Source: an uncultured Planctomycetia bacterium (GTDB lineage: Bacteria; Omnitrophota; Gorgyraeia; Velamenicoccales; JABMQK01). Taken from it: a stretch of 50,804 nucleotides of DNA. The DNA is taken from contig CAZFPS010000002.1 in assembly GCA_964520705.1 (NCBI GenBank), positions 1-50,804 of the forward strand, read 5' to 3'. The notes beneath the pieces were generated by a model, which was not told where the DNA came from, ran no database searches, and saw only the letters and a list, made by a program, of their open reading frames with translations. Both the position numbers and the translations under genes were made by a program. Below are positions 2-50,804 of the stretch, piece after piece (position 1 is the first letter of the stretch; every line of letters begins with the position of its first letter).

Positions 2-1627
2 CCCATCAAAGATGAAAATTTGACCAAAGCAATTGAAGAAATTGTGGAAGCAAACGGCACTACTTTAATCCACAGGACACCCGAGAAAATTATTACAGAA
101 TTAGAGGAGAAAGTAGGCGCAAACGACAAGACGCTCAAGGAGCGTGTTGCCTTCTTGAGGGCCGCCATAGAAGAAGCTTATGCGCCAGCCAATAGCGGCA
201 GATACACATTCTATCATGCCTTAGTTGCCATCAGCAATTTCTTGGTTGAGGTTGCCCAGCAGATTGCTAAGAGCGAGAATCATCTTAATGTATATCTGGC
301 AAGAGACGGTATCAACTTCTGGTTAGCCGGTTATCTATGGGCCAAGAAGGAGAACAAATTGTCAGAGTTCAAAGACAATAACGTTATCTTTCACCTCTCC
401 CGTTCACAATTGGGCCATGCCCATGAAGTGATGAAGATGATTGCAGAGGATACTGCTGCTATCGTAGCAAAAGACGATAAAGCAGATTACTGGCAGACCT
501 TTATGAAATATTTTGAGGCTTATGTAAACGAAGATGCAGAATTCAGAACAATTGTAGAAGTAACTGCCAACCGTTTAACTAAGAAGATAAAAGATGCGCC
601 TCAGGTGAGGATTGTGGAAAGCTTTGCCGAAGGCCTCTTAACTGGGTTCTTAAAGGCAGTTATATTAAAGAATAATCCGCAGGCCAATGTTGAGGAATTC
701 ATCACTGCTCCTAAATGGATACCTGAAGCCAAGAGGGGGGTAGCTTCATTCAAGTTCAATGAGAATAAACTTCAAGAAAGAATAGCTGGTTGGTTTGTTA
801 AAGAAGGGTTAGCTGCTCCTGAGCAGATAGAAGTAACATCGTTTGATAAAGTAGACGACAAGAAAGAAGTAACAGGCGCAGATGATAGGAAGCTTGAGAG
901 AAAATATCTTGAGGCTCAGGTTTATCCAATGGATTATCCTTTGGCAGAAGTTAACCTAGGCCATCCCATTGATTCTCGTAACGGCGCCACTGTAAAGTCC
1001 AGTGAAACCAAACAGGAGAGCTTCTATTTAAGACAGCTACTGATCATTAACGCTATCGCAGAAGGTACTTCTTTACCAGTTCGGTTCCCTGCTCCTGCTG
1101 AAGAAAGAAGAGATCTGGTTAACCACTTAGTCTTTACGCATAACGAGATATTTACTACCGTCTCTGATAGTGAACAGCAGGAATTATTGAATAGGCTTAA
1201 CGCTTGGGTAAGGTTAATGAGCCGTGTTTATGGAACAAGCTTTAACAGTGTAGTAGAAGGCATAATTGAATCAGGAAAAGACGCAGTTTATAGATGGCAG
1301 TTCCAGCGCTTCCTATTTGAATTCAGACAGTTTGATACCTTTGAGAACTTTTATGAGACTATGACTTGGGCAGTGGTTTCTACGGCCAAGCCAGAAGCCT
1401 TCTATACCAAACAGCCCACCAAAGACGGTGCTTCTACCTATTACACCTTATTTGATATTGTTAACAGATTAAGAGAAACCAGAGCCATTATCGGTAAGGT
1501 CAGGAGAGATGTTACCAAACACAAGAGAATTAAGATCGCCTACGGCGAAGAAGAGACCAAAGGTGCAGGGGCAACTGCCCGCCAGGCCAAGAAAGATGAT
1601 TTTATAGATTTGGTAGAAAAGTATAAT
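2..1627 (+). other. Module of unknown function, N-terminally cut by the window edge
   Basis: Coherent non-repetitive translation (..RYTFYHALVAISNFLVEVAQQ..VYLARDGINFWLAGYLW..). No motif I can assign. Ends at the first SSSPV linker (1628-1642). Confidence 0.4.
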
Positions 1628-34600: not shown

Positions 34601-37600
34601 TATATGCCTCACCCGTTGCCGATAGGAGATTTTACCGTATACATTGAATCAATAGAACAACGAAGAATGGAGTATCTTTTAAACGGGAACGACAAGGAAC
34701 GTTTAGAATATTTCTTGCAGTATTATCCCTACCATAACATTATTATGCGATATCGCACCGATTATATGCGCCAGATCGCGGATTTCGTTATAGACACATA
34801 CCTTATACCTGAGGAAAATATTACTAATGTTGAAGAATTATGTTCTTCACAGTCTTTACTGTATAAATTAGCATCAGGAGAATATTTTGCTCCTGATAGA
34901 TTAAACCAGGGATTAATTAACGGGGGTTCTGCGGAAAGAATATTTGGCAGCCAAACAGTTATAGCAAAGGCTTTTGCTTGGTTATCTGAGAAACAACTTA
35001 TAGATAGCCAAGATGGGTTACGAGTTAACATTTTTACTTCTAATGGATTCATCTCTGGTTATGATGATAATGGCTTTGGTTTCGCTGAAAGCATTTTTAC
35101 AAATGAAAACCTAAGTATAGAGGAAAAAAATAGCCTTGTTTTGTTTAACCTTTTCCTGTTGTTTAAAAATAGAGAAATAACCATTAAAGGGCTTAATGGA
35201 GAGCCGATTAAGTACAGCATATATAGGGAAACAGTAGCATTGCCTACCCTTGTAAAGGAGCGGAATAATTTATATAATTTAGCATCATTTATTTCCGGAG
35301 TTGAAAAGTTAGGTGGTTCTAATGAACAAATTAGAGAATTCATAGGGTTGAGCATGACCAGTGTTACTGCATGTCCTGCTACCTCTTTAGAAGAAATATT
35401 CCAGTATCTTTCTCATTACCAGCAGAATTTTAGCCAGCCTCTATATGTTGTGCATTTGGTGAATATAAATATGCCGGCAACGATTACAAAAATTATGCAA
35501 GGGTTAACAGCTAAAGTACTTAGTTTTCCCTTCTCCGTTAACAATAGTGAATATGAGGTATTTAATCCTGTAAAATTAAAAGCTGTTATCAGCGATAGGA
35601 GAGTTTTATTGGGAATTCTTGAGGGGCATTTGACGCCTGTTCAGTTTAATAATTTGCAGGCGAGATTTGATTTGGTTCATCCTTACTTAGCGCATGCCCC
35701 TCCGGAAAAACAGGAGCTAGTTATTTATATAACCCCACGGACAAGCCAGACCGCACAAGGAAGAATTATCGCCGAATATATTAAAGACGGTATAAATTAT
35801 CCCAACGTAGTTCAGTTACACCCCATCATTTTAAATAGTAATTTAGGCGCAGAATACCTCAACCATTTCTTTATCGCTGTCCTTTTTGATGAAATCCAGT
35901 TCCACCATTTACTTGGATACGATCAGAAAAATGGGGATATACACACGTTTGGCTTTTTAGAAGCACAACCCACAATTCTAAAAGCAGTCAGCGGTAATAT
36001 TGATGCGTTAGCTAATATGGGAATTATTCCTGATCCTATATGGGGGCAAAAAATCAGTGCAGAGGGATCAAAAGTAGTTTCTGAGTCAAACTATTTTATT
36101 AAAGAATTTTATAGTAGGCTTCAAGGATTGGGGTTGCGTTTTACCTTTGCCACGCTTAGCATAGATTATGATGATATCAATGCAGATTTATCTTATGCTA
36201 CAAAAGGATTTGTAGCGCATCTAGATAAGCATATAACGGTTAACGATAAACATCCGCGTTTTGCTATTAGTATCCTTGGGTTACCCACCGGTCCCTCTGT
36301 GGGTATCGACTTGTTACAGGATTTCTTGGCTTCGATGGTGGAGGCTACGGATGCCATTGGTATCCCGATTGTCGGAGGGCATACCGTTGAAAACTCCGGT
36401 ATAATTTATACCATTGTATTCGTAGAGGTTATAGCTGAATCTAAATTACTCTTAGCGGTTCAGAAAGAAGAAGTTGCTCTTGCTCAAACTGGCAAGTGGG
36501 CATTCAATGAAGATAAGTTAATTACTACTTTCCGAGCGCAAGGGTGTGCCGCGAAATATCCCCCGGATAAACTAGATGAGATTATTAAACATGCGATAAC
36601 AAAGCTTCCATTAAATAATTTCGGTAACATACATGTTAAGGATGATGTTATTCTCTACCATCTTGATGATCAAAGTTCGATTGCTTTTACTGTTGATATT
36701 ATTAAACCCATTGTTAATTCCAGTAAGCTTTTTAGCCGCATTGCCGTGGTACATGCCACAAGCGACTTGTATGCTAAAGGCATATTTCCTGAAGGTTCAA
36801 TTGGAGTAATGTTTACGCCTGCATATATAAAGCCAGCAAGTTTAACCAATATAATACAAGGTGGAAAAGAAGAGATGTCGCGTCTTACAACTACATATCT
36901 CGGGAGTTATTCTGTACCCAACAAAGATTTATTCTATGGTGCCCTTATGTATGGCATATGCGAACGTAGTGCTTATATCAGTAATTCTACTGTTCAGGAA
37001 GGGGACTGGTTAATTCTTACGAAACCTCTAGGGTCAGGGGTTATAGCGAGCTATATGATTATGAAAGGGCTCGAGTTGAGTCCCGAAGAAATTAAGATAT
37101 ATGAGAATATGTTAAGCCACCTTATAGAGCCAAATGACAAGGCATGTTATGCAATGCGTACGATAGGCGCGCATGCTTCTACTGATGTGACTGGTTTTAG
37201 CCTCATCGGGCACCTAAATGAGATGTTGGAGTTGACTGGCTTAGGAGCAGAATTGTGGTTTAATAACATCCCATTTTTACGCAGCGCAGAACAGTTTTAT
37301 TCAGGGGCATTTTCGTGTAGCGTAAACCGTAATATGCATTATTTCTCGGATCTTGTTGAAATCTCCAGAAATGTAGATAGCTATGCTAATGCTGGAAGAA
37401 TAGCTTTGTTGTATGATGCGCAGACCTCTGGAGGCATGCTTATTTCCGCTAGTCCAGAACAGGCGCGAAGGATAATGGAGATCCTTGATAATAATGATAT
37501 AGAAGGTGCGGTTATTGGCCGGGTAACTTCACGCCTTGAACGACCTATCAGAATAGTAGAGAAACCTGATTGTTATATTCCGATTATTTCTTCTTGCGCA

Positions 37601-40600
37601 GAGAAAAAAGGCATGGATTCATCTATTACCTCCAGCTCGCCGGTTGAGAATAGATCCAGCAGTCTGATAAATCTGGAACTTGGTTTACCTATTGCTATAG
37701 TGTCTTCTGCTATAGATGTGAAAGCATTCTCATTAACAGAGGCACTTCATGATATCAAAAATAAGTTTATTGCTGTCAATGGGTTCATGTCTCTTTTTAC
37801 TAGGAAAATGCCCGGGCCAGAAAATGAGTCGTTGATTGTCTTCATGGAATTAGGAGTAAGATTTGAAGATTATCTCAAGAATTATCTTAAAGGAAAGCTG
37901 GGAAGCGAAGTAACATTAGAATATTTGCAGAATAATTTAATGGCGTTTATTGACGCAAGAACGCAACTGGAGAAATGGTTCGCCTTGAATAGGAACAAAC
38001 TGGATACGCGTTCACTAAAGTGGGTAAGTATGGTTATCGAAGATTCCGGAAAAACAATTGATTCTATTCTGTCGCTTTCCTATGTTTGGATGGGGCATTC
38101 CATGAGAGACGCTGATATTATTAAAGAGATAATCGGTTTTTCTGTAGAAAAGTTTAGGCACTTACATCCTAAAACAATTATAAACGTTTATATGGAAAAC
38201 GTGCCGACTACTCCAGTATTTATTTATGCCGATATTTTGAGAGCTGCTTTAGATGAAGCTCTTTATAATGCGTGGAAATACGGCGATAGAATACAAATTG
38301 CTTTAAATGTAAGAGTCATCAAAGGCAATGAATTAGAAGTTAAAGTTTCAAGTTTTGGTGAAGTTTTATCAAGCGAAACCTTGGCAAGAATATTCTTACC
38401 TAGAGAGCGGGGAGAAGCGGTAGAGGCTATTGAAGGCTCGGGTATTGGTTTAGCAGCCATTAAAAGGAATTGTGATCTTATTGGCGGCAAGGCAGTTTTT
38501 GCTAGTACTAGCAATCAAGAAAATATCCTCACTTTAACCACGCCCATGAATGCATCACTGCATACACTGCCTTTTATCAGTCATGTTAGCCCGCATAATC
38601 TTCTTATTGTAATTTCCGGGCTTGCTGGTTCAGGGAGGCGGGTTTCTGCGCGTGCTTTGGCCGGCCGTCTAGGTCTTAGATACATTAATGCCGGATTTTT
38701 GATGAGAGTTTTATTCTATTTCCTTGTGAAGGATAATCCCGGAATTTCCTTAAAAGACGAAGCCACTATTTCACGGTATTTAATTAATTTCTTTCAAGAT
38801 AACAGGATTATCTGGGAAGAGCCTTTAATTATTGACGGTATTAATAGCGCTAAAAGAGGAAATGACGGTACATCTTTGCGGGTAAAAATTAAGTTGGAAG
38901 TCGCTAATCGTATTGAAATGTTTGATGCCTTTGCAAATTTAGATTTTGTGAAAGCAATTCTTCAGAGTCAATTGAACAGAATTGTAGAATATCTTATGCA
39001 TGGATATGCATATAGTGGAATAGTTATTAGGTCTACTGAGCCTTGGCTTGAAGCCGACCTGAATATTATGTTAGATGCGGATACGGAAGTTAGGGGTATC
39101 CGCTTAGGAGAAATCCTTGAAGTAGTTGATAAGCGGGATAAAGAAACAGGAAGGGTTGATTTTGGGCCGCAGCAATTTCCGGAAATTACCGGCATCGAAG
39201 TCATACATAATGACAATATGTCGGCCAGGGATGTTGTAGACAGGATTATTGAATTAATTACGATGTTAAGAAAAGATGTGGAGCAGTTTAATAAGTTAAT
39301 GAATGAATGGACGCTTTTGTATTACAGCAAAGACATGCATACTATTAGGAAGGTTGTTATAGAAGAGATAAAGGATAATTATGGTCAATTATATTTATCC
39401 TTCGGGATGAATCCGTCTTGTATGTTGGAAGATGCGCTGTCTTATTTCGATGATCTCATTCGGGCTATGCCTGATAAGTTTGAGACATACAAAGATAATT
39501 ATAAGGCTGTTCTTGAGAAAGAAAGTCTAGAGCGAGAACGAATAGAACAAGAAGCCGCAAGAATTTATACTTTGTTGTCAAGGCGGAAACAGGAATATTT
39601 AAAGAGAGAATACCTTGTTTTCTTCTCTAAGAATAACCTTGGTTTAGGTCGCTCCAGCTCGCCGGTGGAGGCGAGGGCGCCAAAGGATATTCTTAAGGAT
39701 ATCCTTAAGGCGAGGCAGGAAGCGTATGAGTATTCACGGGAATTATTGAGCCATCAGCAGGATACACCTGCGGTCGGGCCGAATGCTTATAAGGCTATTT
39801 ATAAGGATTCTTTGATGGCGCTTGAGGCAGCGCGGGCTTACTTACAGGAACTCTTAAATTGTCCGCAAGATATATCTTTACAGCTAAAGCAGCTGGATGA
39901 ATTAGGTTTATTGGCTGAACTTCAGTCATCTCAAACCCCGAGTAAAGAGGCCAGCTCGCCGGCGGAAGAGAGGATTGCCGCTTCGACTTATACAAAATAT
40001 AAGATAATTATAACTAGCCGCTTAGGCTTGCATACAAGAGTAGCGGTAGGAATAGCAAAGATAGTTAACGAATCAAATGCCAGTGTAACTATTTATAAAG
40101 GAGATAACAAGGCTAATGCCGAATCTATTATGCAACTTTTGGCACTTGCTGCTGGTTATGGGGATTCTGTAGTAATAGAAGTTAGAGGTAATGAGACATT
40201 GGGTATAGCTAAAAGTATTGAGAGGTTGATTGCAAATGAAGCATTCGCAATCGAAAGTAGAGAGAGTACCGATAGAACAAATATACAAATCAAAGCTTTC
40301 GATAATGGTAGAGCTAATATCATAGTGAAATTCTATAATATAAAAACAAATGTATATGGTTATGCAGAAGGCAGCCATTTTATGGGAAATCGTATTTCCG
40401 AAAATATAAACGCAGGTCCGAAATTATTAAAAGAAAATATACCGGATTTAGAATTTGAAGTGACAAAAGAAGCGGAAGAGGTTTGGGATCATGCAGGCGG
40501 AACAGCTTTCTATGAGAATGTAACTATTCTTTGCCCGGTAAATAGAGTTAATGAAGTAGTAAGGACTATTACTGCTATTTTAGATATTAATGTAAAAGAA

Positions 40601-43600
40601 AAATCCAGCAGCCCGATACATCAAGCTTATAAAGAGAGAAATCAGTCTTTAGCTTCGCGTCTTGCAAAAATATCATTTATCCCCGCGGTTTGTATTGTTA
40701 TTTCCTGGTTTTCAGGTGATTTATATATTTCTTCCGTAAAGGCCTCTTTTTTGAGTGGATTAGCTATAGCTGGTATCGTGGGAGGTATAGCACGGGGTTG
40801 TGGGAGCTTTATTAGTCAGACGATAAGAAGGGAAGATGTTGATTGGGTTAAGGTGAGGCGCTGGATAATTGCAGGTGTAGCATTCAATGGGTTGATAGGT
40901 TTTGGTCTATGGTTTTGGTTCCAAGCCAACTTTATAAGTAGCAATTTATTAAAAGTGTTAATTGATTTAACTGCCTATACCATAATCGTAGTTTTACCTA
41001 TAAATTTCTTAATCCAGAAATATTTTATCTACAGAGAGGATAAAGCAAAAGTAAATTGGGAGAAAACCCTGAAAGATTTTATGCGTATTTATACCTTTAG
41101 CACTTTGTATTGGGGACCCGCTTTATTTATTGGATGGACCTTCTGGCCTGAAAAAATTGTACTTATTGCCGCAAATATGACAGTAATCTGGAGCGGGATA
41201 TTAATATATTTGTTAGATTTATGGATAAGTAAAATGCAGGTAAGCAGAAACGCGTCTCTCAATAATAATAGATCCTCTAGCTCACCGGTTGAAGTTAAAG
41301 ATATTACCTCCTTTATCCAGGGTGAAATTTATAAACTCGCGAAATTTATTTCTAAAGTCGGTCTTAAGTATGACCCAGAAGGCTTTGGCTACATTACTTT
41401 TGAAGAGGATGGCGAAGGAAGGGCTCCCAGGTTTGGCGAAGAAATGAATACAGCATTAAAATCAATAGATAAGTTTGTCGAACGCCATTATGGGGAAAAC
41501 TTTGAATCATTCCAGAATCCAGTTATTATCTCTGGTATAGGCATAGGCGGTCAGACTACCTGCGCGGTTCCGGCCTTGGGTTTTGTCGTAAAACACGGAA
41601 ACAGATTATTATATGTATGCGATTCTTTTGGGACTGATTACCGGGCCTTAGAAGAAAAGTGGCTGCAGGCCTTAAGAGATAATCCAAAAACAAAAATTCT
41701 CTGGGTAGTGGGTTCAAAATCCGGCAGTACTGATGAGACTATGGTTAACTTCCAGATGAATCTGAAGACGATGATCAGGATCTGGTCAAGGTTTATATAT
41801 GGAGACAAGGAAGTGGATAAAATCACAGAAGGGCTTTTTGTTAAATTATTTGATGGAAAGCCGCTCTCTGAGAAAAGATTCGCCAGCCTTAATCTAACTA
41901 CGGAGCAACTTCAAATTCTGCGGATTGTGTTTAAGAATTTGATTATTGTTACGGGTAGTAAGGAATCGGGTTCCAGATTAGCAGGATTGAAAGTCTTATT
42001 TGATGAACTTTATGATAAGGAAGAAGATAAAGTTATTTCAATTACTATGCTTAATAATCTAGGCGGAAGGTTCCAGGGCTTAAGCCCTAATTCCTTTATC
42101 TATAATGCGCTTTTAGGCATGAATGTAAGAGCCATGCTTGAGGTAGCCAGAGAGGTAGCTATTCTGCAAAGGACAGAATCTGTTTATAGGTCAAAAAAAG
42201 AGGCTATAAATCTATGGCTTAGCAAAGTACAGCATTTATTGATCGCTGTACCCAATGACATTATCTTTGGTCGTCTAGCAGAAGCCTTGGGCCAGATGGT
42301 TCCGGAGAGCACTGGTAAGGGAAGAAGAGCGAAAACACCGGTAGGCATACAGACTTATGCCTATGACTCAGCGGTAATAAATAAAGCTTTTAAGGATATC
42401 AAGCCAGCCGATAAAGCTTACTTAGTATTGGATATTAAAGGAAATGAACCCATAAAACTGGATAAAGAGATTGGAAGCAACAATTTGATTATCCGGTATG
42501 AGCTACAAGAAATATCCGAAACGGAATTAGCTAAATTAGTCCAATTTCTAGAAGATGTAACGGCAAACTTCGGTATATTTAATACTGCCAGGGCACTCTT
42601 GGATAAGTACGCTGAATTAGGCAGTCCGCAATCAGTAGATTTATTTAAGGAAGAGTCAATTATAAAGATTATGTTTACACCTAATGAAAAAGACCCTAAA
42701 TACGCGGCTTTAGATGGTGCGCATAAAGGACTAAATGGAGTTTTTAATGACATAACTCCTTTCCGTCAGCCGGATGTGGAATTTGCCAAAGAATTAGTCA
42801 AGGGTGGATTAGGTGTTAAACAATTCAATGATGCCGGGAATACGGATGAAAATAAACTTCCTGTAAGAGATGAGAAGCAAAGAGATTTAGCTTATAAAGA
42901 AGATAGCTTAAAAGTATCTCAGGGCGCAGTTTTAGACTTGAGTACCCTGGTTCTAAAAGTAAACAATAACCAAGAATATCAAATAGGCGCTCAGGCAGGA
43001 GCGACCCTCTTGCAGATTCTTGAAAGATTGCCTTACCAGTCCCGCGCGCCCAATACCAATAACAAAAAAGACGCAATCATTACACTTATTGATGAATTAG
43101 AATCCCTGCAGAAAGAAATCCTACGAACAGGCATGCCAATAGATTCCTACCAGGATATAGAGGCCCTTAAGAATAGAAGAAATGAATTCTTTGATAATAT
43201 CATAAGGCTCGCATCAGATACTCCATTAACTAGCCAGGAAGAAGAAACAGCTAAGCAGTTAGCTGTTTTAATGCTTAAAGCCCACAAGGATGCTAAGAGT
43301 CTGAATTTTGTGCTCTATGAAGATAGAAACATCCTTACTGAGATTATTAAGAAATTTGCCGATTTCTTAGGCCTTGACCGTTTTGATTTTGGCCCCGCAG
43401 AGCAGCACAAATCTTTCCAGCTTACATCAGGCGGTATAGATGTATCAACAGAGGTGCTTATCCAGTCTGTAAAAGATTTAAAAAAGGTGCAAAATACCGA
43501 AGAGCCCATTATCTATGATGGATGCGTACCTAATTATCTCCATGGTTTATATCCTTCTGAAGTTGGAACCATATACTTAAGGGCTTATACCAAGAGGTTT

Positions 43601-46600
43601 AGCGAAGTTCGGACCGAGGCAGTAGTGTTGATGGCTAAAGATTTAACCGAAAAAGAAAACATAGCCAGCCTGATGGTTTTATTTACTAGGATGATGGAGG
43701 TTTATAGAGGAGTAAACTCCAGCTCGCCGGTTGAGGAAAAAAGAAGTGCTTTCGATTCTTTGATTGTTTGTATGGATAAATATACTCGAAATTATTTATT
43801 CAATGTCTTAACCCTTGGTGTGATGGCCGGGATATTCTTAGGATTAGGTTTATATCCTGAAAAAATAGCCAGCGGACAAGCCAGCGGTTATTTGAATATA
43901 TGGCTAGAGGCAGTCAGGACGACTATTTTTAATATAGAGGTTTTGTGGAAGACATTCGTTGGGTTTTTTGTTTTTGGGGTCATGACGGATTATTTAGCCA
44001 AGCGTACTAATAGAGAGGAGTATTCTTGGAAGGCCTTTAAAGGGGCCACAATGTATGCCTTATTGAAGTTTCTTATTGTGCCGGCATTCTTTATCGCGAT
44101 TGCTCCGTTTAATAAATTTGTGCGTGGTTTTATTTCAGGGCTCTTGCTTAGTTACCTTCTTTTAAATATCCGGGCAAAGACATTTTATACCAAGCATCAG
44201 AACGGAAATGCGGGAGTGTTAAAGACCCAGCGCGCATATGAGATGTATTGGTTGACGCGCCTATGGATTTTTGGACAGAACTTTATTGTGCAAATTCTCT
44301 TTCCCATTGAACGTAGGGCGTTAGCAAATGTTATTATTTCGCAGTTACATTCCTTATATAACAGTTATGGGTTGCATGAACAGAAGGCTTCGCTGATTGA
44401 AAGACAAGATTTAATGGAGTCAATTAGACGGTCACTCTTTATAAAATGGCTCAGGAATGTCCAAAACGGCATAGAAGGTTTAACATCCGTTAAGCTTGGT
44501 AGGCCATGGGATAATTCGGCAGCGCTGTTGGTACATGGTCTTGTTGCGCCGTTCACTTTATTAGCAAATAAATTGAATGCAAGGCTACGGATTGCACGTA
44601 TTTCCAGGCTGGGAGAGAAAGATGAAGGTACCGCCAATTTTAGCATTAGTTCCATCCCAGAGGTAATCAAAGATTTAAAGCAAGGCAGGATGATTATTAT
44701 AGTTGATGATGCAAATCGTGAGAATGAGGGCGATCTTATGATTGCCGCCCAGAAGATTACTCCTGAGGCAATCACTTTTATGGCTAAAGAGGCAAGCGGG
44801 CTTATCTGTATGCCTATGGAGGCTAAGAGATTGGATGAGTTAAAGATTGGGCTGATGTTTAAGGGGAGCGGTGACAAGCAGGGAACCGGGTTTACGGTTT
44901 CTGTTGATGCCAGAGAAGGGACCACTACCGGCATCTCTGCCTCTGATCGCGCTCAGACAGCTAAGGTTTTGATTAATCCAGCAACTAAGCCTGAAGACTT
45001 AAACCGTCCCGGACACATGTTTCCTCTGCGGGCCAGAGAGGGAGGGGTGTTGGAAAGAGCCGGACATACCGAGGCCTCAGTTACTTTAGCAAAATTAGCC
45101 GGCCTTTATCCGGCAGCGGTAATCTGTGAAATTATGAACGAAGATGGGACTATGGCTCGCCTGCCGCAGCTGGTGGAGTTCTCCAAAAAGTATAATCTAA
45201 AGATTGCTACTATAGCTGATTTAATTAAATATGTATCCGGCGCCACTTCTAGCTCACCGGTTGATAAAGACAAGAAGAATATAGAACCGTCCCCGATTTT
45301 ACAAGATTCTAAAAAGTTCTCTGTTCCGCTTACTCGGCTGATCGGAGAGTTGCAGAAAGAGCGCGCGATGGTTTGTTCTATCCAGTCGCGGTGGGAGCCG
45401 GCAGTAGCGGTAACAATTTTCGGAAGCGCGCGTATTTCTGAAGAAGATCCTTACTACCAAATCGGCGTTAATTTGGGAAGAGCTATATATAACCACGGTA
45501 TGGTTATTCGCACAGGCGCAGGCCCGGGAATGATGGATGCGCCATTCAGGGGGTATATAGAAGCCAGGGAATCTTCGGGCGTAGAAAAAACAGAAGAAAA
45601 TGCAACTCAAGGCGTAAGAATCACTCTTCCTTTTGAACAAGAAGCTTCTCCTTACTGCGAAGATATCCTGACATATTCTCACTTTATTAACCGTAAATTA
45701 GCTCTTTGTGAAAATATTATAGGAACTATTGTTTTGCCGGGCGGCTTTGGTACGATAGATGAATTATTCGAGAGTTTGCTTAGAGGCGTGCCGACAGTTC
45801 TTTTAGTCAAAAGTTACTGGCAGCCGATTATGGATGCTTTTGAGGAGAGTTGGGCGAGGGGCTCTTTACAGAAGAATATCGGACTGCGGTTTTTAATTAC
45901 AGATTCTATCGGAGAGGCCTTAGCGCACATCAAGAGTAACGCGCAGAATATTGAACTTATTAAGCCCGACCAAAATAAACTGGGGCAGGACAATAAGGAG
46001 ATTGAAGAAGGCCTGTTGCGGCTTAAGGGTTTACCGCCGACAGTTACCTTTGTCGGCCGGCCAGGAGAAGATTACTTTGGATTAGATATTGTTGGAGAAA
46101 TAGCCTTCCGCCTCTTGTCCTATGGTATCGCTATTCGTACAGCCAGCCGCGATGTATTATTCAAGCGGCTTTTAAAAACTACTCAGGATAATCATAAACT
46201 TAATTTACTGCAAGCTACTATTTTCTTGCCGGAAAAAGATATTCCTCTGACCGTAGAAGAACTAAGTTTAGGCAGGAATCTTATAGTTATCCAGGATATC
46301 TTTAACCATCAGGTTTTGATCACTGAAAATTCTTTGGGTTTTGTGTTTCTGCCCGGCGGGATAGGCACATTAAATAAATTATTTGATATACTCTGCGTAA
46401 TGCAGACGGGAAAAGTGTCCCGTAGGCCCATTGTGCTCATCGGTGGGGAATTCTGGCAGCCCATAAAGGATGCCATTGTAAATGCTACTCTATTTCGCTC
46501 GCCACCTTTGATTTCCGCGGGAGATGAGAACTTAATGCGTATTGTTGATACAACAGAACAGGCTTTGGAGATTTTAGGATTAGAACAGATTGCTAGTTCG

Positions 46601-49600
46601 CCGGTAGATCAAGGTATTGAGTCTCAAGATTTAGGAGAGTTAGGGTATATCGTTAGAAACATTCTAAGATATAAAAGAGCAAAGGCTGTAAAAGAAGATA
46701 AAAAAGGAAGATTGAATGCGCCTCAGCTTTTAGTAATAGCAATGTCCTTGTCGGTTATACTTAATAAAGAATATAAGCTAATTGAAGATATTGTTTTTAA
46801 AGAATACAGCCGTTTGTTGGATGAAGGAAAATCTGGATCAAGTCCTATACGGGCTTATCCTTTGAATGTCCCGGCGGCCGAGCAGAAAGAGGCATCAGTT
46901 AAATTTGGAGCGGATTTATTTGTCAGGTTATCTTTTATTCTCTATGGCAACAATTATGAAATAACTTTAAGCGAAGGACAAATGCACAAGGAGTGGGAAG
47001 AGGATTTAAGGGATTTAGCCTATAATTTATCTTCAAAGATTCGCGGCCCTCCTAGAAAACTTACCTTTTACATTTCTACTGATATAGAATTTACCGATTA
47101 CAGCGTTGCCGTAAGATTAACCGCAACCCACATAGTCCTGCACCCGTATTTCTTTAATCTATTCTCTGACTGTAAAAAGATCTGGCAGACTGAAATAATC
47201 CTAGATCTGCTGAATAAAAAATCAAAATCTTCATCTCCTCTGGGCTCCATAGTCAACACCTTTACCTCCAGCTCCCCCATCCAGCATCAGCTCGTCATCG
47301 ACCTTGTTTCTAATCAAATCATTCAGCGGCCTTCGGTTACCGGCAAGCGCATCTTGCGTAAAGAAGGCATTAGCGAAGGTATGGTTCTTGAGGGTATTGC
47401 TAACGGAACACTCAAGCTAATCTCTGAAAAAGCTTTTATCGAATCTTTAGATAGGTCTACTACCGGTATTGGTATCTCAGGCGGCGGCGACTGCGCCGGT
47501 ATAGCTGACTTCTTCCGTTCTTTAAGGTATAATCTAAAACCTGAATTAACCATGCTCGGTGTCAGGAATGCCGGTGAAGGCTTAATGGATAAAGACTTCT
47601 TAAGCAAGCTAATCTTAGTTGACCCTCTTTTAGCTGAAGACTTCCTCGGCCAATCCTCTACTCCCTACGGCTCTTCCCGCGAAGATCCTTTAAAAAAGAA
47701 TAAAGAAACCACGCAAAGGAATCTCTCCGGTTTTAAATTCTTCTATGGCACCGGCGGTAATGATCATTTAGGCCTCTTAGAGCGCTTCTCTCGATTGCTT
47801 CCAGAATTAGTGGTAGTAGGGACTTTTAAAAGTATTGATGGTGATGGTTGGGTTGCCGGCAGGCCTGCTCAGATGCTGGGTTTTTACACTGCAACCGGAG
47901 TTTACCAAAGGCAGCTTTGGGCAATTACCCAGAACGCCTATACTCATCAGCAGCGGCATGTGGTTGAGACTTTTGGCCGGGGTTGCGGCAAACTTGCCTA
48001 TGCTTCAAGCCGCAGATATCCAGAGAATTTTAATACACTCTCCAAAGAAGAGCAGCGTAAAATTATTGAATTCCGCGACCTGGTAATGATTATCGTTCCT
48101 GAAAAACCTACTTCTTTGCGTTCCATTGCCCAGGAAGCCAAAAGGATTAAGCAAGAACAGGGTGGAGTAGTGGTGGTAGTAGCCGAGGGTTTTATGCCTC
48201 CAGAATTAAAATCAGAGATCATCAGGCTTGGTTTAGATGAATCATTAAGAGACCGCTGGTTCAGGCATGACCTTCCTGTTGAAAGTATCTCTAGCCTTAT
48301 CCACAAAGAAGGAAGAGAGTCTCCGACTGATGACTTAAGTCTCATGCTTCAAGATCCGGAATTAGCTGCTCAATTTGCCAAGACCACCTGGCAGGCTAAA
48401 TTTGACCCCCATGGCAATGTCACTAAACTCGCTGGAATCACAAACTTCATCATCAAGGCCTTAGAAGTATTGGGCGGCGCTACTAAAGTCAACAGAGTCC
48501 TCTTTAATTACGGAGCCAGAGACGCTACCCCGGATGCTTATGATATTCATATGGGGGAAAAGATCGGTGTTGTCGCAGCGCAGCTTATTAATGACAATGT
48601 CATTGGCGGTAAAGCCGTAGTTTATTTTGAAGGGATGAATCCTAAAGAAGAAGAGCCTGAAGTTGTAGACTTAGTAGGTGTATCCGATAAGAACAACCTG
48701 AATAATCCGGACCTTTATACTGAAGAAGAATTAATTAAGAATGGAGTGTATTGGGAGAAAAAGACCAGCTCACCGGTAGTTCGAGATAACGCAGAGATGC
48801 TACAACTAATCTTTAATTTATTTAATTATTTTGACTGTCAGAATAAAATTCTTAGGCAACAGGTTTTATCTTTAAATAGGCCATTGAGTTTAGATGGGGA
48901 AGAGCCTGGTTACCTCGGGTATATTCCTTATGCTTATTATTATACTGATATTTTATATCTTATCTGGCGGTATTCCTCTTATCTAAATAAACAGCAAGAG
49001 ATAAAGGCCTTGGAGATTGGTTCAGGCGCAGGATGGTTCCTGTTGTTCCTTAAGGCCTTAAAAGAAAAGCCTCTAAAAGATAATCTGCGGCTGGAAGAAT
49101 TCCAGAAAAAGTTAATGAATATGGAATACGATAGATGGTTTAAAAAATTAAAAAGGCTGCTAGAAAATATGGAGTTTGAGGGGATTGATATTAATCTATA
49201 TCTTTGCCGCTTTGCCCAATGGAGAGGATTAAATGTATTAAATGCCGATATCTTGAATCCTCCTGTTTTAGATCATTACGACCTTACTTTTAGTGAAAAT
49301 GTATTAGATCTTTTGCAGGTTAATGGAAAGTTGTTTAAGCCCTATAACCCCGAAGCCAGCTTTGAATTAGGGAAAGAAGCATTGGTGAGGATCAGCCAAT
49401 TGACTAAGGCTGGAGGCTTAAGCATCCATACTTCTGATTTTGGCTTTCCTCTTAGAAGGGAAAGTATTAAAGAGTCTGGTTTTGAAATTTTAGAAGGCGA
49501 TCCGGCAGGAAGGATTCTTGTACTTCGTAAGGGTTACTCCAGCTCACCGGCGGAAAGAGATTTATCTTCGGCGATAAGCGTCTTCTCTAGTGTCTACTCC

Positions 49601-50803
49601 ATCTATGACAATGCTTTTGCCTACAAGATAAAAACAGATACGGTATTTTCCTACTCTGAATCTGTGAGTGGCGGGAGGCAGGTTAACGAGAGGTTTGGCA
49701 AAATACAAGGGTTTACCGGAAGAAATATAGAGGCCAATTTTTTCTATAATGCGTTTTTTCAGCGGGAGAGGAAGCTTTTTAAATTCCCGTTCGCCGGCAG
49801 GAGCAAACTCAACTTTGGTAAGCATAGCAAGATTCAGGACAGCCCTAATTTATGCTTAATTTTATCAAAGGACACCAACCCCAGCGTTTGGGCCTCCACA
49901 ATGCCTTTCTTTAATCTTAAGGCTAGCTTAGGGTTAATCGGCAGGCGTTCTTCAATTCCATCAATAAGCCAGCCAACAGGATTATGGAAGACGTACTCTT
50001 TAGCGGGAGCGGATTCCTCAAATTTAGCGTCAAACGCGCAGAGGAGATCCCATAGGGAGCCCGTATCAAAGATAAAATATTTAGGGGCGCCGTTTTTATC
50101 CACAACTGCCGCAGCCTTAAAATTCTTAAGTTCCGATTTCTTAAATTCTTTAGGAATAGCCGCAAATTTCTCAATGGGCTCTACTTTGACAAGTTCTTTA
50201 ACTGATAACTTAACTAATGATTTTGATCTCATTTTTTCGCTCCCCTCTATTTTTAAGCAGTATAACACATTCTTTTTTAATCTGTCAAGCCCGATATCGT
50301 TAACGAATACACCTGATTCTTTACTGGCAAAGTCAACCTGCTTCAGCTTGACGGTACGAGGCATGGCTGATAGTGGGTTTTTATTTTTACCTTTGCGGAA
50401 AGCGCTTTCGTTGTATAGCCATATTTTACGTAATCCCAAACGCACTAGCTCTCCGGTGGAGGCGAGGACGTCAGAAGATATTCTTAAGGATATTCTTAAG
50501 GCGAGGCAGAGAGCGCATGAGTACTCACAGGAATTATTGAGTCACCAGCAGGATACGCCTGCGGCCGGGCCGAATGCTTATAAAGTTATCCATAAGGATT
50601 CTTTGAGAGCGCTTGAGGCAGCGCGGGCTTACTTACAGGAACTTTTAAATTGTCCGCAAGATATATCTTTACAGCTAAAGCAGCTGGATGAATTAGGCTT
50701 ATTGGTTGAACTTTACTCATCCCAAACCCCGAAGAAAGAAGCCAGCTCGCCGGTAGGTAAAGAGGCGATTGCCGAGATGATGCTGCGAGAAGACGTAAGA
50801 GGA
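2..50803 (+). CDS. Single giant multi-enzyme ORF, open at both window edges (16,934 codons); chain of ~40 enzyme-like modules separated by SSSP[V/I/A] linkers
   Basis: Frame-2 translation read end to end shows no TAA/TAG/TGA. Every recognisable catalytic motif in the window lies in this frame: HAD DxDG, GT2 DAD/QCGFK, Nudix box, HxHxQ, ROK DxGGT, PGI SKSGxTDET, PFK, RibB, LOG PGGxGT, HPr GLHTR. The supplied ORF track lists no + strand frame-2 ORF ending inside the window, as expected if the frame never closes. Confidence 0.9.
1700..2300 (+). other. HEAT/PBS-lyase-like helical repeat region
   Basis: Helical repeats such as ..YWNVRKFAAQQFEEM.. and ..ITDRAIKALIILLDDPYANTEAAKALQKLEW.. resemble HEAT_2-type repeats. 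Pattern recognition only. Confidence 0.35.
5100..5715 (+). other. HD-superfamily metal-dependent phosphohydrolase-like domain
   Basis: ..MFEHSLMGIKAL.. then MLMLLHDIGKAVTTGQHLSLGKEL..FLVLNHS..MIVGDIAG. This gives the H..HD..H..D arrangement. The HD dyad codons are at 5444-5449. Confidence 0.55.
7798..8340 (+). other. Conserved domain of unknown function preceding GT2 (copy 1)
   Basis: ..SQAFQLVINDIFAHAALYKEGKDKWAVFADRAEKYFKYHPEE..CYLTLLRIN... Closely similar at nucleotide level to 13922-14458. Confidence 0.5.
8351..9240 (+). other. GT-A fold family-2 glycosyltransferase domain (DPM1/ALG5/GpgS-like), copy 1
   Basis: IKIAVIVGMHKEKSRL..NPNGEDS..IDWELIFVAHVNSPDNSGKVV..LYTDADVTVD (DAD near 8729-8740)..ETQCGYKAY (9011-9025)..FSFDTELMHL. 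Confidence 0.7.
9413..11290 (+). other. Large conserved module (copy 1): nucleotide-sugar-enzyme-like N-half and hexapeptide (left-handed beta-helix-like) repeats near the C-terminus
   Basis: ..RIAVFHDAGSAKRCSTLSQSQNGTRADLRILG.. resembles the G-rich loop of NTP-transferases. ..ISGIYIRNSIIRNSTIKEGNIINSVVSDSLIAKL.. has 6-residue periodicity. The family is not identified with certainty. Confidence 0.35.
11291..12049 (+). other. HAD-IA beta-phosphoglucomutase-like domain, subtype A, copy 1
   Basis: [26 protein letters not shown] (motif I); [12 protein letters not shown] (II); GKPDPDIF (III); LEDAVKGVKA (IV). Confidence 0.75.
12113..12880 (+). other. HAD-IA beta-phosphoglucomutase-like domain, subtype B, copy 1
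   Basis: [57 protein letters not shown]. Confidence 0.75.
12893..13702 (+). other. HAD-IA beta-phosphoglucomutase-like domain, subtype A, copy 2
   Basis: [71 protein letters not shown]. Confidence 0.75.
13922..14458 (+). other. Conserved domain of unknown function preceding GT2 (copy 2)
   Basis: ..SQAFQLVINDIFAHAALYKEGKDKWAVFADRAEKYFKYHPEE..CYLTLIRIN... Paralogue of 7798-8340. Confidence 0.5.
14459..15350 (+). other. GT-A fold family-2 glycosyltransferase domain, copy 2
   Basis: KIKISVIVGMHKEKSRL..NPDGEDS..IDWEFIFVAHVNSPDNSGKVV..LYTDADTTVD (14846-14857)..ETQCGFKAY (15122-15136)..FAFDTELMSL. Confidence 0.7.
15524..17338 (+). other. Large conserved module (copy 2) with hexapeptide-repeat-like C-terminal part
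   Basis: Paralogue of 9413-11290: ..RIAVFHDAGSAKRCSPLSQSQNGTRADLRILG.. and ..IGNVYLKNSIVTNSNITEGNVINSVISDSVITKL... The stretch 16101-16210 is almost identical to 10041-10150. Confidence 0.35.
17339..18160 (+). other. HAD-IA beta-phosphoglucomutase-like domain, subtype B, copy 2
   Basis: [57 protein letters not shown]. Confidence 0.75.
18161..18988 (+). other. HAD-IA beta-phosphoglucomutase-like domain, subtype B, copy 3
   Basis: [56 protein letters not shown]. Confidence 0.75.
19150..19960 (+). other. GT-A fold family-2 glycosyltransferase domain, third, more divergent type
   Basis: KIKVWVVFAVYNELSRI..NPHGEDA..LDWRLVMVDNRSPDKTSEV..GYTDCDITT (19526-19540)..DTQCGFKFF (19741-19756)..WAFDTEWLLL. 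Confidence 0.7.
20264..20620 (+). other. Nudix hydrolase domain
   Basis: GAVSKGEKAIAAGMREFGEELGI at 20450-20518 fits the Nudix box GX5EX7REUXEEXGU exactly. Upstream is ..HHASAYVIVKAPSGKIYLQLRG... Confidence 0.75.
21152..22144 (+). other. HIT-superfamily, GalT/Ap4A-phosphorylase-branch nucleotidyltransferase-like domain
   Basis: CILC at 21461-21472; ..VVNKIPWATYHMLLMS..; ..ASIPHFHLQFF with H-x-H-x-Q at 21704-21718. Confidence 0.55.
22352..23155 (+). other. HAD-IA beta-phosphoglucomutase-like domain, subtype A, copy 3
   Basis: [71 protein letters not shown]. Confidence 0.75.
23156..24108 (+). repeat. Direct repeat copy 1 (953 bp), apparently identical to 25121-26073
   Basis: Same sequence at an offset of 1965 nt. 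The shadow ORFs 23464-23706 and 25429-25671 translate identically. The repeat starts at tcctcctcccccata and ends at tcatcgcctgt. Confidence 0.85.
23168..24097 (+). other. HAD-IA beta-phosphoglucomutase-like domain, subtype C (long cap insertion), copy 1
   Basis: [57 protein letters not shown]. Confidence 0.7.
24690..25060 (+). other. GHKL / HATPase_c-like ATPase domain (no DHp His seen upstream; anti-sigma-type Ser kinase-like)
   Basis: IHEIFSNAVKHGNS (N-box-like); ISDEGRS; LRGAGLGIYKAG (G2-like); GTEVTIVKYL. Confidence 0.55.
25121..26073 (+). repeat. Direct repeat copy 2 (953 bp), apparently identical to 23156-24108
   Basis: See copy 1. Bounded by SSSPI (25121-25135) and GSSPV (26063-26074). 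Confidence 0.85.
25133..26062 (+). other. HAD-IA beta-phosphoglucomutase-like domain, subtype C, copy 2
   Basis: Amino-acid sequence identical to 23168-24097. Confidence 0.7.
28140..28760 (+). other. Uridine kinase / phosphoribulokinase-family P-loop kinase domain
   Basis: RVIIGFMGPSSAGKTTFVKML (Walker A, 28161-28200); LGLDSYLHD; ILIMDITCLG; RLQRRLERDTR. Confidence 0.6.
28829..29590 (+). other. HAD-IA beta-phosphoglucomutase-like domain, divergent subtype A, copy 4
   Basis: [57 protein letters not shown]. Confidence 0.65.
30205..31030 (+). other. HAD-IIB (phosphomannomutase / Cof-type phosphatase-like) domain
   Basis: VVIADMDETLTPSRS (DxDxT); VILSSSD; GGTTSIDIGLINAKGNAI; YFGDSFDLSGNDTPV. 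Confidence 0.6.
31097..32060 (+). other. ROK-family sugar kinase (glucokinase-like) domain
   Basis: MLAIGVDLGGTKISAAAV; GIGIAAPGILD; YDATAAALGEAVFG; YMSIGTGIGSGII; MLGGGV. Confidence 0.7.
32591..33540 (+). other. Second ASKHA/ROK-like sugar-kinase-fold domain (divergent)
   Basis: LFIGINIGSTYTRCSVI; GIGIGTVGMV; MDNKVAALGERFGIG; LGTAMAGKMI; AVAIGAAYMA. Confidence 0.5.
34360..34800 (+). other. Udk/PRK-like fold with degenerate Walker A (possible pseudokinase)
   Basis: VIVRIDGRPGNRKSHSISLL replaces GxxGxGK[ST]. It is followed by YKVILVEGTII and FTVYIESIEQRRMEYL, matching the layout of 28140-28760. Confidence 0.35.
36250..36440 (+). other. PurM/AIR-synthase-superfamily N-domain-like fragment
   Basis: ISILGLPTGPSVGIDLLQDFLASMVEATDAIGIPIVGGHTVEN. 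Confidence 0.3.
36500..37560 (+). other. Selenophosphate synthetase (SelD)-like PurM-superfamily domain
   Basis: FRAQGCAAKYPP (Cys codon 36545-36547); DDQSSIAFTVDIIKPIVNSSKLFSRIAVVHATSDLYAKG; ASTDVTGFSLIGHL; DAQTSGGMLIS. Confidence 0.6.
37700..38520 (+). other. Histidine-kinase core (DHp-like H-box plus HATPase_c), no sensor domain evident
   Basis: LTEALHDIKNKFIAVNGFMSLF (His codon 37748-37750); LDEALYNAWKYG; IEGSGIGLAAIKRNCDLIGG. Confidence 0.55.
38600..39260 (+). other. Cytidylate kinase-like domain with altered P-loop
   Basis: [36 protein letters not shown] follows the Cmk N-terminal pattern, but GSGRR replaces GSGK[ST]. Confidence 0.45.
39665..39961 (+). repeat. 99-aa helical module, copy 1 (paralogue of 50456-50752)
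   Basis: VEARAPKDILKDILKARQEAYEYSRELLSHQQDTPAVGPNAYK..LQELLNCPQDISLQLKQLDELGLLAEL... Bounded by SSSPV and ASSPA. Confidence 0.8.
39992..40240 (+). other. HPr (phosphocarrier protein)-like domain
   Basis: KIIITSRLGLHTRVAVGIAKIV (His codon 40031-40033); ANAESIMQLLALAAGYGDSVVIEVRG (Ser46-like site). Confidence 0.65.
40616..41287 (+). other. Integral-membrane module, about 6 predicted TM helices
   Basis: Hydrophobic ~20-aa stretches: ISFIPAVCIVISWFSG, FLSGLAIAGIVGGIA, WIIAGVAFNGLIGFGLWFWF, LIDLTAYTIIVVLPINFLI, LYWGPALFIGWTFW, IVLIAANMTVIWSGILIYLLDLWI. Confidence 0.6.
41330..43700 (+). other. pgi: Glucose-6-phosphate isomerase (SIS/PGI) domain with large insertions
   Basis: ISGIGIGGQT; WVVGSKSGSTDETMVNF (41711-41740); GPAEQHKSFQLTSGG (about 43398-43440). 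Confidence 0.65.
43790..44310 (+). other. Second integral-membrane module, about 4-5 predicted TM helices
   Basis: FNVLTLGVMAGIFLGLGLY, FVGFFVFGVMTDYL, ALLKFLIVPAFFIAIAPF, FISGLLLSYLLLNI, LWIFGQNFIVQILFPI. Confidence 0.55.
44650..45235 (+). other. ribB: 3,4-dihydroxy-2-butanone-4-phosphate synthase (RibB) domain
   Basis: [117 protein letters not shown]. Confidence 0.85.
45400..45950 (+). other. LOG-family (TIGR00730-type) domain 1
   Basis: VTIFGSARI; GMVIRTGAGPGMMDA; IVLPGGFGTIDELFE (PGGxGTxxE, 45737-45775). Confidence 0.7.
46035..46580 (+). other. LOG-family domain 2 (more divergent)
   Basis: GFVFLPGGIGTLNKLFD; RRPIVLIGGEFWQPI. Confidence 0.55.
47330..48740 (+). other. pfk: 6-phosphofructokinase (PfkA-family) domain
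   Basis: GIGISGGGDCAGIADF; FFYGTGGNDHLG (47747-); VVGTFKSIDGDG; ETFGRGCGKLA; VVVVAEG. Order and spacing match the PfkA motifs. The phosphoryl donor (ATP or PPi) cannot be called. Confidence 0.65.
48900..49520 (+). other. Class I SAM-dependent methyltransferase domain
   Basis: ALEIGSGAGWFLLFL (motif I, 49010-); FEGIDINLY; YDLTFSENVLDLL; LTKAGGLSIHTS. Confidence 0.55.
49562..49825 (-). CDS. RelE/ParE-family type II toxin, antisense inside the giant ORF
   Basis: 87-aa ORF. ..EREFKKLPLPLKKRIIEKI..THRFRVGKYRICFYLVGKSIVIDGVDTREDAY fits the RelE/ParE pattern (RvGdYRiiY..v.hR.eaY). It starts 8 nt after the partner ORF. The + strand turns pyrimidine-rich here, unlike the rest of the window. Confidence 0.75.
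   Translation of the reverse strand: MLTKVEFAPAGEREFKKLPLPLKKRIIEKIGLYISSGKPLYFAKPLVNLPPATHRFRVGKYRICFYLVGKSIVIDGVDTREDAYRRR
49834..50232 (-). CDS. Putative cognate antitoxin (132 aa, Phd/YefM-like core)
   Basis: ATG at 50232 is preceded by GGGGAG (7-nt spacer) and a sigma70-like promoter. ..KNFKAAAVVDKNGAPKYFIFDTGSLWDLL.. resembles the Phd/YefM core. It lies directly upstream of the toxin in the usual operon order. Confidence 0.6.
   Translation of the reverse strand: MRSKSLVKLSVKELVKVEPIEKFAAIPKEFKKSELKNFKAAAVVDKNGAPKYFIFDTGSLWDLLCAFDAKFEESAPAKEYVFHNPVGWLIDGIEERLPINPKLALRLKKGIVEAQTLGLVSFDKIKHKLGLS
50240..50245 (-). promoter_or_regulatory. Shine-Dalgarno site for the antitoxin
   Basis: The minus strand reads GGGGAGcgaaaaaATG. 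Confidence 0.6.
50259..50288 (-). promoter_or_regulatory. Sigma70-type promoter driving the antisense toxin-antitoxin operon
   Basis: The minus strand reads cTTGACAgattaaaaaagaatgTGtTATACTgc. The -35 TTGACA is at 50283-50288, the spacer is 18 nt, and the extended -10 TGnTATACT has its -10 at 50259-50264. Confidence 0.6.
50456..50752 (+). repeat. 99-aa helical module, copy 2 (paralogue of 39665-39961)
   Basis: VEARTSEDILKDILKARQRAHEYSQELLSHQQDTPAAGPNAYK..LQELLNCPQDISLQLKQLDELGLLVEL... Roughly nine in ten nucleotides match copy 1 by eye. Confidence 0.8.
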
Positions 50804-50804
50804 T

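Follow-up and report, generated by a model that had tools for sequence, protein, structure and literature searches.

Type II toxin-antitoxin (TA) operons of the RelBE type, exemplified by Mycobacterium tuberculosis RelBE2 (Rv2865-2866, PDB 3g5o) and Thermus thermophilus RelE (2khe), have two genes with the antitoxin first, a short spacer and a sigma-70-type promoter, and encode a toxin of about 87 amino acids (aa) with the RelE fold. The same layout was found on the minus strand of a 50,804-nucleotide (nt) stretch of DNA, referred to here as the window (contig CAZFPS010000002.1 of assembly GCA_964520705.1, positions 1 to 50,804), from an uncultured Planctomycetia bacterium that GTDB assigns to the Omnitrophota. 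The toxin of this cassette is like those of RelBE operons in length, fold and sequence, but the cassette differs from them in that its upstream partner falls outside all recognised antitoxin families and folds, that it is nested antisense in the reading frame of another gene, and that its toxin gene is devoid of the codons TTA, CTA and TCA. It is quite probably an autonomous type II TA operon of ~750 bp that forms an antisense module of a giant gene of >50.8 kb and that has been selected against stop codons and frameshifts in the frame of its host.

Several other systems offer partial parallels. Intein homing endonucleases (LAGLIDADG or HNH, Hint blocks B-F) are likewise selfish cargo and occupy the same slot as the TA operon does in many relatives, though not in the window; the carrier in those relatives is a canonical class-1 intein, with C1, TxxH, HN and Thr at +1. 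Unlike a homing endonuclease, the TA cargo lies on the opposite strand, outside the intein polypeptide, has its own promoter, and would act by addiction rather than by DNA cleavage. The cassette is thus a type II TA variant carried by an intein in relatives and by a giant gene here. Sedentary chromosomal integrons and genomic islands contain TA cassettes that stabilise them against deletion and often point the other way from the rest of the array, and the present cassette is similarly a promoter-bearing TA pair in opposite orientation within a very long array of modules rich in repeats. In an integron each cassette is a gene of its own, whereas here the array is a single open reading frame (ORF), so the antisense strand of the TA pair must stay stop-free and in phase. 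Antiparallel overlapping genes also have opposite-strand frames, here over ~670 nt and with an in-register antisense frame, but in the present case both partners are independently identifiable (the RelE family with free relatives, the host with flanking Pfam domains) and the constraint on one partner is only the absence of stops. One preprint contends that long antiparallel ORFs are for the most part nonfunctional (10.1101/724807).

Giant enzyme-chain proteins of Omnitrophota have been described (West-Roberts et al. 2023, 10.1101/2023.11.21.568195; 2026 preprint, 10.64898/2026.06.07.730766), and their end-to-end translation and later cleavage were raised as an open question (10.1101/2023.11.21.568195). 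The host ORF in the window shares their repertoire of HAD, NUDIX, Lysine_decarbox/LOG, HATPase, methyltransferase-like and sugar-phosphate enzymes. In a text search, inteins, antisense genes, embedded TA pairs and the SSSP linker treated below were absent from the same two sources, and a literature search found no natural TA pair nested in inteins or giant genes, the searched literature being limited and novelty therefore unproven. The antisense nesting of a TA operon inside a reading frame is apparently an unreported arrangement.

TA operon in the window

A single plus-strand frame, the one whose codons begin at 2 mod 3, was open across the window for 16,934 codons with no stop, and the longest open run in any other frame was 235 codons. 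With at least 16,934 codons and many unrelated enzyme domains, the host ORF belongs with the Omnitrophota enzyme-chain giant proteins (>10,000 codons), and the closest relatives of the cassette are in Omnitrophota metagenome-assembled genomes (MAGs). Codon-usage scoring ranked the host frame best everywhere except in the TA module and in one marginal window within a ROK module.

The minus-strand cassette fills exactly one module between two consecutive linkers of the host protein, SSSP and TSSP (coordinates in Table 1). Downstream of it the host reading resumes with a 99-aa module (SSPVEAR..DILKDILKARQ...KEASSP) to which no function was assigned and which occurs twice in frame, at 39656-39953 and immediately after the cassette; the copies are ~85% identical in aa (read off the alignment) and ~82% identical in nt over 357 nt, a stretch reaching slightly beyond the module. 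Because the second copy is an in-frame repeat of the first, the host frame is kept across the cassette. The cassette itself has the make-up of a type II TA operon, with an upstream partner, a short spacer and its own promoter. The promoter arrangement cTTGAC...TGTTATaCT was conserved in embedded and free copies, and an equivalent GGAG-type Shine-Dalgarno sequence was present in all relatives.

An exact-sequence look-up of the toxin found no record of it as a called gene. It had no match in Pfam (E up to 0.1), including the PF05016 ParE_toxin model or an equivalent, and none in NCBIfam (E up to 10); a precomputed PF05016 match was listed for only 2 of its 53 homologues. These homologues, up to 80% identical to it, nearly all 86-91 aa long and mostly from Omnitrophota, included several that their sources had named RelE/ParE. 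Similarity to characterised RelE/ParE toxins was found in the PDB, where a single-sequence search matched RelG Rv2866 over the full length (E = 0.0018) and the family profile matched 3g5o (2.8e-7), 2khe (1.5e-6) and the RelE 9g12 (0.0025). An AlphaFold2 model (predicted local distance difference test [pLDDT] 84.8; predicted template modelling score 0.73) was compared with the PDB by Foldseek and matched RelE folds at template modelling (TM) scores of 0.66-0.77; the top 12 matches were all RelE and related YafQ toxins (TM 0.58-0.77, probability 1.00). The predicted structure thus has the small alpha/beta microbial RNase fold of RelE, and by sequence the family is a divergent RelE/ParE subfamily. 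Its conserved residues K29, R55, R57, R62, R80 and Y84 may be compatible with the catalytic positions of RelE.

The same upstream partner was present in all loci examined. Each of its 57 homologues was annotated as "hypothetical" and had no Pfam domain, and the window protein had no sequence match in Pfam, NCBIfam or the PDB, belonged to no known antitoxin family with a DNA-binding domain (RelB, Phd/YefM, ParD, HigA and others), and gave an AlphaFold2 model (pLDDT 74) without a fold match in the PDB. From its position in the operon we infer that it is the antitoxin. Its frame was open for 235 codons (49834-50541, minus strand), past the ATG and through the promoter into the next host module, and a longer ORF with a GTG start at 49834-50445 is probably an artefact of this upstream openness.

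The toxin protein is under strong purifying selection. In pairwise comparisons the ratio of nonsynonymous to synonymous substitutions (dN/dS) in the toxin frame was 0.04-0.16, with dS saturated, and substitutions fell mostly at third positions (e.g., 16, 8 and 45 at positions 1, 2 and 3). These values bear on the possibility that the minus-strand ORFs are relics, the TA pair being nonfunctional and the segment now serving as a spacer or domain of the giant protein. Such decay would agree with the lack of a Pfam or NCBIfam match for either ORF alone and with the presence of toxin pseudogenes in some relatives; we nevertheless judge it very unlikely, given that the window toxin retains all family-invariant residues and its full length and has a confident RelE-fold model, that the operon still has a promoter close to consensus and a Shine-Dalgarno sequence, that the low dN/dS of the TA frame stands against values of ~1 or higher in the host frame, and that the composition of the host-frame reading is aberrant. 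The damaged relatives were L032, L034 and L048, whose toxin ORFs have internal stops or frameshifts and are probably pseudogenes. At L032 (GC content, 0.64) a 441-codon antisense frame was open despite the damaged toxin.

Exclusion of stop-making codons from the toxin gene

An earlier note on this DNA had held that the toxin codons are in register with those of the host, both starting at 2 mod 3, and that the toxin avoids the codons that would read as stops on the other strand; both statements held when recounted. Owing to the shared register, the toxin can put a stop into the host frame only through TTA, CTA or TCA, and none of its 12 Leu and Ser codons is one of these: the 9 Leu codons are CTT (3), CTC (3), CTG (2) and TTG (1), and the 3 Ser codons are TCT, TCC and AGC. 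The excluded codons are in ordinary use nearby, as the same note had said of TTA. In the host ORF, TTA and CTA make up 39% and 7% of Leu codons and TCA 19% of Ser codons, and the antitoxin has TTA at 5 and CTA at 2 of 16 Leu codons and TCA at 3 of 8 Ser codons, or 10 of 24 altogether (Fisher test of toxin versus antitoxin within the window, p = 0.015). The comparison with the antitoxin called for one correction. The antitoxin codon blocks start at 1 mod 3 and are not in register with host codons, and its TTA, CTA and TCA codons therefore do not interrupt the host frame; in its register a host stop arises where Tyr follows a codon with T or C as its last base, or where His or Gln follows one with T, and only five such risky junctions occur in the gene.

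Synonymous resampling was carried out as an exact calculation of the probability that the host frame stays open. For the toxin region this probability was 0.0021 under the codon usage of the host, 0.0023 under that of the antitoxin and 0.015 when synonymous codons were used uniformly; for the antitoxin region it was 0.22, and the product for the TA pair was 4.6e-4. The toxin values at local usage are far below the 5-10 percent above which, according to the earlier note, an open antisense frame would count as common. In addition, a stretch of 214 nt that precedes the antitoxin and takes in filler sequence up to the next linker was open in 2.1% of shuffles.

The exclusion recurred across relatives. 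Among 23 distinct embedded copies, TTA, CTA and TCA accounted for 0 of 284 Leu and Ser codons in the toxins and for 191 of 559 in their own antitoxins (Fisher p = 1.5e-40), whereas in 30 free-standing relatives, in which the antisense frame is not open, the corresponding counts were 110 of 336 and 180 of 522 (p = 0.61); stop-making codons thus had a share of 34% in embedded antitoxins and 33% in free toxins. When the calculation was repeated for the 23 embedded toxins under the codon usage of each host, the median probability of an open toxin frame was 0.02. At two invariant Leu columns the embedded copies used CTG, TTG, CTC and CTT and never TTA or CTA; at the same columns TTA was present in 6-8 of 21 free copies. 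The spacer between antitoxin and toxin was always 2 mod 3 in embedded copies (e.g., 8, 5, -4, -1, 14 and 20) and took all three residues mod 3 in free copies. Codon exclusion is a heritable property of the whole lineage of ORF-resident cassettes.

These counts also speak to chance or general codon bias as the origin of a toxin without TTA, CTA and TCA, acquired, for example, from a GC-richer donor. No antisense frame is easier to keep open than the in-register one, the uniform-usage probability of 0.015 is not astronomically small, and the GC content at third codon positions (GC3) of embedded toxins was somewhat above that of free toxins. The toxin in the window, however, has a GC3 of only 0.37, the probability at local usage is about 0.002 and falls further for the TA pair, the antitoxin of the same cassette uses the three codons freely, and the pattern recurs in every one of the 23 embedded toxins against a 34% share in their antitoxins. 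An origin by chance or bias is therefore extremely improbable, and we regard it as effectively refuted.

Constraint on the two strands

Read in the host frame, the TA module is Ser/Phe-rich and Glu/Val-poor relative to the rest of the host protein (Ser, 15.4% versus 6.5%; Phe, 9.4% versus 4.6%; Glu, 2.0% versus 7.7%). The host-frame segment of the cassette had no Pfam or NCBIfam match, and its dN/dS in the toxin comparisons was ~0.9-2.5. The host-frame peptide is unconstrained and only kept open.

True dual coding, in which the host-frame translation of the cassette would itself be a functional conserved domain, might be suspected from the 30-53% identity among the host-frame translations of embedded copies. 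That similarity mirrors the conservation of the TA pair, and the host-frame dN/dS, the lack of a recognised domain, the skewed composition and the position of the segment in inteins, where splicing would remove it, leave dual coding with hardly any credibility.

The earlier note had concluded that selection acts on both strands and that both readings matter. The first part stands, since the toxin frame is conserved (dN/dS 0.04-0.16), the embedded toxins have 0 of 284 stop-making codons, and their Leu codons turn over without becoming TTA or CTA, with the host frame open and in phase; the second part does not extend to the amino acids of the host frame, which are not conserved.

Several points weigh against the reading of the cassette as an autonomous TA operon selected to leave the host frame open. 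The putative antitoxin lacks a recognised family or fold, and expression and toxicity of the TA pair, like expression of the host ORF, are deduced from sequence. The window ends 358 nt past the cassette, so that little of the downstream host gene is visible. The open frame at this locus could be inherited, the nearest copy being only 13% diverged, and a role in addiction or against deletion would be speculative. In the comparative counts, the class of embedded copies presupposes an open frame, which makes the figure of 0 of 284 partly definitional, a caveat softened by the antitoxin control and by the Pfam domains that flank the insert. Because the copies are phylogenetically related, the pooled P values imply more independence than there is; non-embedded copies are AT-richer on average (lower GC3).

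Relatives in inteins and giant ORFs

A RelE-type operon with its own promoter recurred antisense, always in the same frame relation, in very long ORFs of Omnitrophota MAGs and of some MAGs of Elusimicrobia and the Candidate Phyla Radiation (CPR). Embedded loci from metagenomes included host ORFs of at least 5,415 (L029), at least 2,400 (L041), at least 2,377 (L037) and 1,531 codons (L007), and several short metagenome contigs with the TA pair were open end to end. Among GTDB species genomes, 18 of 44 loci were embedded, such as L050 (at least 6,752 codons), L062, L085, L069 and L060. L095, a further case, was open over its whole length. An exhaustive HMMER search with the host-frame translation of the cassette recovered 26 representative proteins, 14 of which were 744-7,848 aa long; a word-indexed homology search with the same translation gave 0 matches. 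No TA relatives were found in plasmid and phage collections.

The embedding contexts were two, the homing-endonuclease slot of inteins and enzyme-chain giant ORFs. In the intein context the host frame reads C-x-T-G-D-T..., then TT-x-N-H-P, the antisense TA operon, VYDIEVEGTHNF..AHN and Thr. When the cassette was removed in silico, the flanks joined into a single match to PF14890 Intein_splicing that covered positions 10-155 of 155 at 81-96 bits. Hint blocks were present on both sides of the cassette in L077, L055, L053 and L007, and a Pfam match bridged the insert in P0054 (with an SF1 helicase as host), P0055 and P0056. The giant-ORF context, with the cassette bracketed by SSP linkers, comprised the window, L050, L069, L061, L058, L060, L086 and L095; L029 is an enzyme-chain giant ORF without nearby linkers.

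Placement of the window cassette itself inside an intein was rejected. A PF14890/Hint scan found nothing over 48767-50803 with E allowed up to 1, nor over the whole ORF with a limit of 0.001, and a phmmer search of the window with the TA-flanking intein halves also found nothing. Likewise, L005 was rejected as a giant gene split by the TA pair, as its flanks are the 3' end of a 3,269-aa gene and the 5' end of another gene.

Some host ORFs had further features at or near their inteins. In that of L041 (L041:1-7200, minus strand), aa 1964-2388 form a second intein with an NYN (PIN-like RNase) domain in the insert slot, another non-canonical intein cargo. In the host frame of L006, the intein segment "W.KV.(E/D)LK.GDEIAAARE" is directly repeated on either side of the cassette, and this repeat may be a footprint of cassette insertion. 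The host ORFs of L041, L037, L043 and L065, from CPR and Omnitrophota, contain a repeated motif, "G(N)(V/I)GIGT(T/S)SP," beside the intein sites, with junctions reading "...GQ|C.TGDT" and "AHN|TYI.GN.GIGT.SP," which suggests that the motif is a preferred homing site in a repeat protein.

Mobility and history of the cassette

The closest copies shared only the cassette. L050, whose toxin is 90% identical, aligned with the window at 86.6% nt identity over the 738 nt of the shared extent in Table 1, with unrelated flanks on both sides apart from a common SSSPAE linker; L095 aligned at 82.5% identity over 49820-50298, with unrelated flanks and host modules. The cassette has no recombinase. In the toxin cluster of the window (>=62% identity), 13 of 18 copies were embedded, and intein and linker contexts were intermixed. 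The free copies in this cluster had zero to four stops in the antisense frame, L002 and L008/L054 being open and L001 and L011 having one or two stops, a pattern suggesting that copies escaped embedding and then underwent relaxation. The free copy at L054 (9476-10348, the same as L008) is flanked by a Fur-like gene and a 2,012-aa gene and has a 290-codon open antisense frame whose ends, "KEGEEIA..." and "...IVKIEPLGRL," resemble intein remnants; this suggests that parts of the intein travelled along with the cassette.

These observations bear on whether the cassette was only pre-adapted, that is, whether it arrived already stop-free and has been under no ongoing selection here, perhaps with a dispensable downstream part of the host. 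The stop-free property is lineage-wide, the sharing of nothing but the cassette implies recent movement, and decay is slow, given that the free copies just named are still open or nearly so. Against pre-adaptation alone, the host continues in frame past the cassette with a bona fide repeated module, the window-specific filler next to the cassette is open too, in a 214-nt stretch that only 2% of shuffles leave open, and relatives have at least 3,300 host codons downstream of the cassette; pre-adaptation would moreover still be selection for an open host frame, only earlier in the lineage. We consider it unlikely as the whole explanation and retain selection for an open host frame, with the qualification that the property may be largely a legacy of ancestors resident in inteins or giant genes and not a product of evolution at this locus.

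The filler had no homology to L050 or L095 past ~50300-50309, and no function was identified for it. A 14-nt imperfect direct repeat, GCGGAAAG(A/C)G(A/C)TTT, is present at 49550-49563 and 50395-50408 and brackets the cassette and part of the filler. Its second copy is outside the region common to L050 and L095. The repeat could be an insertion footprint or could be due to chance, as two-copy short repeats often are.

Proposed mechanism and implications

Selection against stops and frameshifts would follow if host ribosomes read through the reverse complement of the cassette. With the toxin in host register, TTA, CTA and TCA would be excluded from it; with the antitoxin in a shifted register, only junctions at Tyr, His and Gln would be dangerous there. 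The by-product of read-through would be a segment of ~300 aa, which in inteins would be lost on protein splicing; in the window it would stay in the polyprotein between the linkers or be removed if the linkers are processed. The TA operon would be transcribed from its own promoter, convergent with and antisense to the host mRNA, and both the operon and the host ORF would be expressed.

Some chromosomal TA loci are known to oppose deletions. The TA pair may similarly be an addiction module that benefits itself, and perhaps its carrier, by penalising deletion of the intein or giant-gene segment in which it resides, but this role is speculative. A broader proposal, that this is a TA-operon lineage specialised for life inside the frames of other genes, with a coding sequence that evolved to be stop-free in antisense and so does not truncate the host, replacing the endonuclease in inteins, with addiction instead of homing as the means of persistence, and acting as an anti-deletion anchor in giant genes, is put forward tentatively, its chances being slightly short of even.

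A promoter-bearing TA operon hidden antisense in an ORF, with measurable codon-level adaptation, would be a new form of nesting for selfish elements, and in relatives the operon appears nested inside an intein, itself a selfish element. If stops are selected against in an antisense insert, then translation beyond it must matter; if the broader proposal holds, strict stop avoidance would be direct evolutionary evidence that ORFs of at least 50 kb are translated as one continuous unit. Gene callers that choose the host ORF miss embedded TA operons, which are systematically under-annotated as a result. For engineering, the cassettes are natural cases of genes recoded for a stop-free reverse complement.

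Modules and linkers of the host ORF

Pfam matches in the host ORF included about 10 HAD hydrolases as well as NUDIX, ROK, PRK, HATPase, AIRS, HPr, cytidylate kinase, DHBP synthase, LOG and PFK domains. Most of these enzymes handle phosphate, and FGGY-like kinases and AIR-synthase-like domains were also present; the ORF looks like a metabolic "polyprotein." Its modules are joined by the motif SSSP[V/I/A], in a fuller form [S/T/G/A]-S-S-P-[V/I/A/L], with variable codons. SSP occurred 35 times against 2.5 expected, at module boundaries, the sites including 9404, 12104, 13706, 37634, 39656, 43721, 48767, 49541, 50447 and 50744. In the last 13 kb the linker DNA followed the consensus TCC AGC TCN CCG GTN GA, and AGCTCNCCGG occurred 10 times against 0.28 expected. 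The linkers are candidate processing or junction points of the giant protein.

Table 1. Positions of the TA cassette, its expression signals and the adjoining host features in the window
Feature	Position	Strand	Description
Host giant ORF	2..50804	+	Chain of enzyme modules; extends past both ends of the window
Upstream linker, SSSP (TCC AGC TCA CCG)	49538..49549	+	TA module starts 4 codons on
RelE/ParE-type toxin gene	49562..49825	-	87 aa and TAA stop; in host codon register
Cassette extent common to relatives	49572..50309	-	Shared at the DNA level with other giant ORFs
Spacer, antitoxin stop to toxin start	49826..49833	-	8 nt
Putative antitoxin gene	49834..50232	-	132 aa and TGA stop; ATG at 50232
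Shine-Dalgarno sequence, GAGGGGAG	50240..50247	-	7 nt upstream of the antitoxin ATG; read from the sequence
TA operon promoter, TTGACA-18 nt-TATACT	50259..50288	-	11 of 12 consensus positions; TG ahead of the -10 element
Window-specific filler, cassette to next linker	50310..50443	+	Open in the host frame
Downstream linker, TSSP	50444..50455	+	Located by SSP motif scan
Next host module (SSPVEAR...KEASSP)	50447..50744	+	In frame; repeat of 39656-39953

A candidate antisense gene at 31052, where a minus-strand frame outscored the host frame, was rejected as a chance open frame within the ROK kinase module. In the HAD region, an apparent tandem duplication of ~1,965 nt involved ~23159-25124 and 24098-26063, with the contexts "SSPILKAAVFDLDGVITSTAKFHSI" and "KTIIEEFKKKQGSSPV" recurring identically 655 codons apart and off-frame open stretches recurring at the same spacing.

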